A stretch of DNA of 21,534 nt from the sequence record PV759139.1; one strand, written 5' to 3'. This document shows positions 6,139 to 6,196 of the stretch, piece after piece. A model generated the notes under the pieces. That model was not told the origin of the DNA. It saw only the letters and a list, made by a program, of their open reading frames with translations, and ran no database searches. Both the position numbers and the translations under genes were made by a program. This DNA is from Pseudomonas phage vB_Pae_LMQSRe25-1. Numbering within the stretch: the first letter of the stretch is position 1; each line of letters begins with the position of its first letter.

Positions 6139-6196
6139 AGCCGTTGAACCCCTTCCGCTAATCCCGCGTCGCACTCGCCGCCACGATGGCGGCATG
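6139..6196 (+). promoter_or_regulatory. Conserved late-gene leader/promoter element, copy A (AGCCGTTGAACCCCTTCC ... CCACGATGGCGGCATGA); second copy at 14885-14943
   Basis: About 60 bp share a 15/15 core CGTTGAACCCCTTCC and a 12/12 3' block ATGGCGGCATGA with the region upstream of gene I. Ends in the mini-ORF ATG-GCG-GCA-TGA overlapping the gene start. Confidence 0.4.

Follow-up and report, generated by a model that had tools for sequence, protein, structure and literature searches.

Two segments of the genome of Pseudomonas phage vB_Pae_LMQSRe25-1 (record PV759139.1), analysed here as a window of 21,534 nucleotides, are probably late promoters that depend on Mor, give rise to mRNAs with no or almost no leader, and incorporate a hairpin under selection; we put the probability of this reading, which is drawn from sequence comparison, at roughly 0.6. 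One segment would serve the lysis-proximal operon and the other the operon of gene I, making them the counterparts of Plys and PI of phage Mu. At each of them, a single Mor/C-family protein would bind an imperfect dyad, (C/T)TGAA-CCCC-TTCC, whose centre lies 43.5 nt before the ATG and which is adjoined by a weak -35-like hexamer (CTAATC in the first copy, copy A, and GTAACC in the second, copy B). The host sigma-70 RNA polymerase would use the -10-like hexamer CACGAT or CACCAT, placed in or next to the loop of a GC-rich inverted repeat that ends at the ATG, and transcription would start at the A of this ATG or within about 2 nt of it, so that both operon-leading genes would be translated leaderless.

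By its sequence, the window belongs to a D3112/DMS3-like phage of the genus Casadabanvirus: the region 5600-6600 matches Pseudomonas phages Meltemi and Cline at 100% identity, and over 100 Casadabanvirus phages of the D3112/DMS3/JBD type at 95-99%. The presumed activator for both elements is the 149-residue product of a gene at 5642-6091 (+ strand), which matches PHROG 836, 'late transcriptional activator', with an E-value of 6.6e-47, and whose homologues carry the Pfam domain PF08765 (Mor); the initial annotation had recognised the family correctly, but had placed the start at 5681, which is an internal ATG of the ORF beginning at 5642. Copy A precedes the first gene of the lysis-proximal late operon (6194-6541, + strand), which encodes a 115-residue protein of unknown function assigned by profile match to PHROG 3648 and is followed, two genes on, by the endolysin gene (6956-7369). 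Copy B precedes gene I (14940-16046, + strand; PHROG 328, E = 5.9e-122), which encodes the Mu-like head maturation protease/scaffold. For both proteins, alignments of homologues from seven lineages begin at the proposed Met. The elements thus stand before late operons, for lysis (6194, endolysin) in one case and for the head (gene I, 14940) in the other, and the gene order in Mu is alike.

Terminator-like structures without a T-run lie upstream of both elements. Directly 3' of the mor stop codon, two GC-rich hairpins occupy 6092-6128 (+ strand), the region 6085-6140 folding at -30.4 kcal/mol (z = -4.2); between the aca1 stop codon and copy B, two strong hairpins and a direct repeat occupy 14759-14881 (+ strand), the region 14740-14885 folding at -63.3 kcal/mol (z = -4.2) and the repeat being AACCCCGTTAG, present twice at 14800-14821. 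The G-I intergenic region from 14759 to 14830 contains a large hairpin, the two copies of AACCCCGTTAG and then AAATCGTT; relatives keep CCCGTTA(A/G)A repeats in the same region (at 18660-18730 in L001, and in L004, L005 and L147). In Mu, the annotation places the strong gyrase site between genes G and I, and by analogy this hairpin and repeat region is possibly its equivalent. An anti-CRISPR locus is located between gene G and copy B (about 13943-14721; AcrF2, others, and aca1 at 14497-14721), the whole of which is absent from Meltemi. A palindrome with 9-bp arms, TTAGGCACATTGTGCCTAA, lies near 13950-13990 and is similar to promoter p5 of Cazares et al.; transcription from a promoter at this palindrome would continue directly into copy B.

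The elements themselves form a two-copy family of 60 nt (6138-6197 and 14884-14943), 75% identical without gaps and 8746 nt apart, which is the longest two-copy repeat family within the window. The initial annotation had described a repeat of about 60 bp before the first late gene and before gene I, and this description stands, with limits that are right to within one base; only the TGA that closes copy A ends at 6197 and not at 6196, since ATGGCGGCATGA occupies 6186-6197. The core GTTGAACCCCTTCC occurs exactly twice in the window (6143-6156 and 14889-14902), all other matches needing three mismatches, a level at which shuffled sequences give about 1.5; ATGGCGGCATGA also occurs exactly twice (6186-6197 and 14932-14943). 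Both gene ATGs, at 6194 and 14940, lie 49 nt past the T of TGAAC.

All features of the two copies are on the + strand. In copy A, the upstream block CAGCCGTTGAACCCCTTCCGCTAATC (6138-6163), conserved in relatives and presumed to be a Mor-type binding site with a weak -35, contains the dyad GAA-N4-TTC (GAA 6146-6148, TTC 6153-6155) and the -35-like CTAATC (6158-6163); the inverted repeat GCCGCCA-CGA-TGGCGGC (6177-6193), with 7-bp arms and a 3-nt loop, ends one base before the ATG and includes the -10-like CACGAT (6182-6187). Copy B has the upstream block CAGTCGTTGAACCCCTTCCCGTAACC (14884-14909), with the same GAA-N4-TTC dyad (GAA 14892-14894, TTC 14899-14901) and the -35-like GTAACC (14904-14909), and the inverted repeat GTCGCCA-CCA-TGGCGGC (14923-14939), one of whose seven pairs is G-T, with the -10-like CACCAT (14928-14933). 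The dyad centre is 43.5 nt before the ATG in both; taking the A of the ATG as +1, the -35-like hexamer spans -36 to -31 and the -10-like hexamer -12 to -7 (with A at -11 and T at -7 as its two critical bases), and a GGCGGC discriminator and then C-1/A+1 come after. The dyad of the window is imperfect, its pairing being limited to GAA/TTC; the combination of dyad, hexamer and stem is found solely at these two ATGs in scans of the window and of the complete Meltemi genome.

Neither gene has a conventional Shine-Dalgarno (SD) sequence, as had been stated initially: among 53 genes of Meltemi, pairing with the 3' end of 16S rRNA has a median of -7.4 kcal/mol, against -2.1 kcal/mol for the gene at 6194 and -1.5 kcal/mol for the gene at 14940, which are the fifth and the second weakest, respectively. 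The rigid distance between promoter and ATG, the missing SD and the uniform ATG lead us to infer that these genes are leaderless. The start at the ATG is deduced from geometry, which points to 6194 and 14940 instead of the starts near 6165 and 14910 proposed in the initial annotation; the searchable literature gave no transcription start site, footprint or reporter result for any of these phages. RNA-seq of phage Fc02 was considered as a source of transcription starts and set aside, Fc02 being a B3-like phage.

Other assignments of the element were tried and rejected. Scans of the + strand around both copies gave neither a sigma-70 consensus match nor a canonical terminator. TTGAAC might be read as a -35 with its -10 located 17 bp downstream, but by eye that -10 position is unconserved; taking the element as an ECF promoter (GAAC...CGTC) or as a sigma-54 promoter gives, again by eye, the wrong spacing and no conservation. 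As a rho-independent terminator, the inverted repeat would have no T-run, ATGAGC or ATGAAG coming next. At the gathering threshold of Rfam 15, no family matches at the element, the sole match in the window being a type II hammerhead ribozyme (RF02276) at 4942-5013 (+ strand; full model, 67.3 bits where the gathering score is 37, E = 2.7e-12). This ribozyme sits in the early operon just upstream of gemA-mor, where it could cut the early transcript ahead of these genes; it overlaps the start of a hypothetical ORF (4955-5251; Meltemi 9181-9477), which likewise ranks among the weakest in SD pairing.

In relatives whose Mor is 60-85% identical (11 loci from prophages and contigs: L002-L008 and L145-L148), the element is found before the homologue of the 115-residue gene in all 11, and before every Mu-like protease gene I that these loci include, with 49 nt, or in a few cases 50 nt, between TGAAC and ATG. 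The consensus reads CG(C/T)TGAACCCCTTCC(C/T)GTAAC, about 17 variable bases, (CAT)GCCGCC, a loop, and TGGCGGC-ATG. The expectation that the element would recur upstream of the lysis and I genes of related phages is borne out; in every relative examined it is found at those two sites only, and a Mor/C-family gene is never missing. Several of the loci L003-L008 have one or two extra genes (encoding 66, 94, 142 or 235 residues) between mor and copy A; copy A thus belongs to the late gene and not to mor. In L004, the TGA of TGAAC (5000-5002) doubles as the inserted gene's stop codon, which leaves no terminator between this gene and the late promoter. Scans of a genome collection gave no match to the Mor protein, and chance matches only to the 15-base pattern CTGAACNNNTTCCNGTAAC.

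Two of the related loci merit separate mention. L146 (19805-19985) has an unrelated gene of 330 residues in place of the Mu-like protease, with a GGAG Shine-Dalgarno and no copy B. In L145, the gene caller sets a start at 10829 as against 10850, choosing an ATG within the left arm of the hairpin, and the protease start at 19305 as against 19179, which is 126 nt too far downstream; the architecture could be used to correct such mis-set starts of promoter-proximal genes.

The same architecture is found, built from other sequence, in most of the more distant relatives. Alignment of the protease N-terminus yields 80 IMG/VR loci, whose identity to the query is mostly 50-63% (IMG/VR contains at least 566 protease-gene loci for Mu-like siphophages), and the 78 loci examined provide 66 unique regions upstream of the protease ATG. 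Of these, 60 have an xAxxxT hexamer whose end lies 7-8 nt before the ATG, 53 have a stem ending at the ATG, and 50 have both. The dyads with arms of at least 5 bp have their centres at -45.5 to -42; dyads end 34-38 nt before the ATG, with a weak -35-like hexamer directly after. They include GTGCTGAAGCGCTTCAGCAC, which shares its CTGAA half-site with the window, as well as TTTTCGGCctGCCGAAAA, TTTTG-N7-CAAAA, TGAAACGTTTCA, GCGAAACGTTTCGC and ACTGACGTGCGTCAGT; the hexamers, in or beside the loop, are for example GACCAT, CAATCT, CATTAT, TAATAT or CAAGAT. Distant phages also carry the perfect palindrome CTGAAGCGCTTCAG, with the same half-site as the window and at the same distance to the ATG.

Shuffle statistics on 55 unique regions, which overstate independence because the 66 regions are related by descent, give the hexamer at the right position (A-11/T-7, or shifted by 1 nt) in 52/55 (shuffles: mean 2.4, maximum 8) and a strong stem ending at the ATG in 35/55 (mean 2.0, maximum 6). 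The hexamers CACGAT and CACCAT of the window are weak, but they have the A in position 2 and the T in position 6 that 52 of the 55 relatives show; hexamer and stem are partly confounded, since the T at -7 (and, with short loops, also the A at -11) belongs to the hairpin. At the conserved position, a script that favoured ATG picked ATG as the start codon in 55/55 regions, and an SD-like motif is present in three of the 55, two of which lack the architecture.

Two copies per genome are found in distant phages as well: a scan with GCTGAAGCGCTTCAG identifies phages with two copies, each 36-38 nt before an ATG and accompanied by hexamer and stem. In one of them (L447), the copies are 7.9 kb apart, and the first directly follows an ORF which resembles the Mor of the window, judged by its C-terminus alone, and which is itself preceded by another ORF in the gemA position, placed by position alone. 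A scan with GATTTTTGNNNNGTCAAAAT for a second promoter copy in another family gave only gene-I copies and unrelated AT-rich phages.

Late promoters of the Mor/C type are a known kind. In Mu, the Mor dyad extends from -51 to -36, with its centre at -43.5, and abuts a poor -35, the -10 being normal (PMC4287176; bioRxiv 10.1101/2025.05.02.651988); C acts in like manner at Plys and PI, which have a 10-bp match in common (PMC4461284). The elements described here resemble the Mor-dependent middle promoter Pm and the C-dependent late promoters Plys and PI of Mu in having a Mor/C-family gene upstream, in standing before the lysis operon and gene I, in a dyad about 43.5 nt before the predicted start, in a poor -35 with a recognisable -10, and in the sequence match shared between the lys and I promoters. 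The initial suggestion of activator-dependent late promoters is well supported by sequence comparison, through conserved placement, the Mor/C gene and the distance of the dyad from the predicted start. The elements differ from Mu in several respects, however. Mu has two activators in cascade, Mor and then C, whereas a single Mor/C gene is seen here; lys and I of Mu have leaders with SD-like sequences (agggaag and gcaggac) before their ATGs, whereas here the ATG coincides with the predicted +1; the -10 of Mu is not surrounded by an inverted repeat, whereas here there is one, with covarying arms; and Mu has four late promoters, whereas two of this type are found per genome here. Among the sequence resemblances, TAATCCCGC (copy A, 6159-6167) also occurs, without a change, within Mu Plys (ATAATCCCGCACC / ccATAATCCCGCacc; L229 1418-1426), and cATAACCCCag of Mu PI resembles GTAACCCC of the relatives; the distance from TAATCCCGC to the -10 hexamer is 3-4 bp shorter than it is in Mu, and homology of the sites is thus unproven.

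The inverted repeat is, judged by the covariation of its arms, under selection for pairing as such. Its arms take the forms GCCGCC/GGCGGC, GCGCCC/GGGCGC, CCTCGC/GCGAGG, TCGCGCA/TGCGCGA, GGGCCA/TGGCCC, TCGCCAT/ATGGCGA and GCTGCC/GGCAGC, with loops of 3-11 nt across the phage families, and they differ not only between families but also between the two promoters of one phage (L447; L376/L413). Stem energies are equal on the two strands (means of -12.0 and -11.7 kcal/mol, p = 0.59), as are G-U counts, so that nothing favours action in RNA over action in DNA; internal transition mismatches, three G-T against no A-C, are too few to use, and the notion that changes in the left arm are 'wobble-compatible' was dropped, the strand tests giving it no statistical weight.

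Since the 5' arm lies upstream of the predicted start, the hairpin would form only in read-through RNA, where, in the reading that we favour tentatively, it may mask the SD-less ATG, so that the gene would be translated only when its own promoter fires. Read-through could come from the early operon (through the T-less hairpins after mor), from inserted genes, from the upstream late operon or from the strong anti-CRISPR promoter. We propose tentatively, as a possibility short of probable, that the inverted repeat acts as a promoter-coupled translation gate: RNA from the late promoter, with a free 5' AUG, would be translated, and read-through RNA would be silent. Phage fitness is reported to be affected by unregulated activity of the anti-CRISPR promoter (PMC13551039).

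Strong selection on a covarying hairpin would also suit activator-dependent late promoters that start upstream of the inverted repeat. The hairpin would in that case open a short leader, about 20-25 nt long, and would stabilise the mRNA or regulate SD-independent initiation at the ATG, perhaps being unfolded by a phage factor in the way that Com acts on the translation-inhibition structure of mom in Mu. The starts near 6165 and 14910 would fit such an arrangement, and in many relatives the ATG is itself inside the hairpin (CATGCCGCC...GGCGGCATG), which reads most easily as translation control. We nevertheless regard it as unlikely: the position 7 nt before the left arm has no conserved -10-like element, conservation is lowest in the stretch from the upstream block to the left arm, and the invariant A and T in otherwise variable loops would be left unexplained. 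With a start near -25, moreover, the dyad would be centred at about -19, a position that cannot be reconciled with activation of the Mor/C type from -43.5.

A role at the DNA level, in opening or closing the promoter, is the main alternative to masking of the AUG. The inverted repeat would in this case be either the operator of a dimeric repressor or a small cruciform at the -10 and discriminator, which keeps this GC-rich region closed or helps to open it, in the manner of the hairpin promoters of phage N4. Its stems are equally good on both strands, as the symmetry of a duplex predicts, and it straddles the -10 hexamer and discriminator, the typical position of an operator; the spacing of the arms, at 3-11 nt, and their divergence between two promoters of the same phage argue against a sequence-specific dimeric operator, however, and arms of 5-10 bp are short for a cruciform. 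To our knowledge, these phages have no RNA polymerase of their own that uses hairpins, and overall we consider a DNA-level element improbable, at least as much so as a start upstream of the repeat.

The initial annotation had further pointed to a three-codon ORF, ATG-GCG-GCA-TGA (6186-6197 in copy A and 14932-14943 in copy B, + strand), whose translation as Met-Ala-Ala-stop might couple ribosomes onto the downstream gene through the overlap of its TGA with the gene's ATG. Both copies in the window do read ATGGCGGCATGA, with the overlap ATGA. Neither start nor stop is conserved in the relatives, however: the start is CTG in copy A of L003/L004 and of L005 and in copy B of L004, L007 and L008, and ATT in many true Casadabanvirus genomes, which read CACCATTGGCGGC, and many Casadabanvirus genomes have CACCATTGGCGGCATG, with no ATG, at the copy B site; the TGA is lost wherever the second codon of the gene starts with G (ATGG). 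The mini-ORF furthermore has no SD of its own, and in distant families the 3' arm is changed wholly, to GGGCGC, GCGAGG or TGCGCGA. Coupling through the mini-ORF is very improbable on this evidence; ATGGCGGC is, by comparison across the relatives, the 3' arm of the conserved inverted repeat, and the mini-ORF is incidental to it. Least probable of all, and in effect dismissed, is that the similarity is a functionless trace of recombination or duplication between two intergenic regions, as the copies' 75% identity and the mosaic nature of such phages might suggest, given an architecture kept in unrelated sequence at about 50-60% protease identity, with fixed distances and compensatory changes in the arms.

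Late promoters that start at the ATG, with a hairpin around the -10, have partial parallels in other systems. Lambda cI, transcribed from PRM, and many genes in Deinococcus and mycobacteria are leaderless and have their -10 about 7 nt before the ATG; they share with the present elements an obligatory ATG, an xAxxxT hexamer whose end lies 7-8 nt before it, and the absence of an SD. Those cases are mostly constitutive or controlled by a repressor, however, whereas the arrangement described here is tied to a candidate activator site and a conserved hairpin and, unlike them, heads long late operons of a gammaproteobacterial phage. The mom gene of Mu has a translation-inhibition hairpin that is opened by Com, and, itself under a C-dependent promoter, resembles the genes considered here in having a hairpin at its start codon; the mom hairpin, though, is inside the transcript and hides an SD, whereas here the 5' arm lies upstream of the predicted start and there is no SD. 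The early promoters of phage N4 are DNA hairpins with stems of 5-7 bp and 3-nt loops, used by the phage's own virion RNA polymerase; the small GC-rich inverted repeat centred about 10 nt before the predicted start is similar, as a resemblance only, and no enzyme of this type is known in the phages studied here.

Judged from sequence, this variant would be distinguished from the promoters of Mu by the start at the ATG, by the covarying repeat around the -10, and by an apparently single activator with only two such promoters per genome. The searchable literature contains no description of such a promoter variant, its motif strings occurring in no relevant paper, and no experimentally mapped late promoter for D3112, DMS3 or the JBD phages; the sole promoter list found for this group, which was predicted by program for PaMx73 and H70, lacks the element (PMC4378225, supplement 1).

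D3112, DMS3 and the JBD phages are workhorses of research on anti-CRISPRs and Pseudomonas lysogeny, and the analysis locates the two candidate late promoters and the candidate activator site exactly. A further prediction is that the late mRNAs lack leaders, an unusual condition among gammaproteobacteria. The combination of a dyad, a -10 at the ATG and a covarying hairpin recurs in many uncultured Mu-like phages (78 loci examined), and is thus a signature by which late operons can be annotated and start codons corrected. It also bears on the harm done to the phage by unrepressed anti-CRISPR transcription, which would run into copy B. If the inverted repeat does act as a promoter-coupled gate, many Mu-like siphophages would share this device, its arms covarying among them, and it would ensure that the leader protein of the lysis operon and the head protease are not made before the activator fires.
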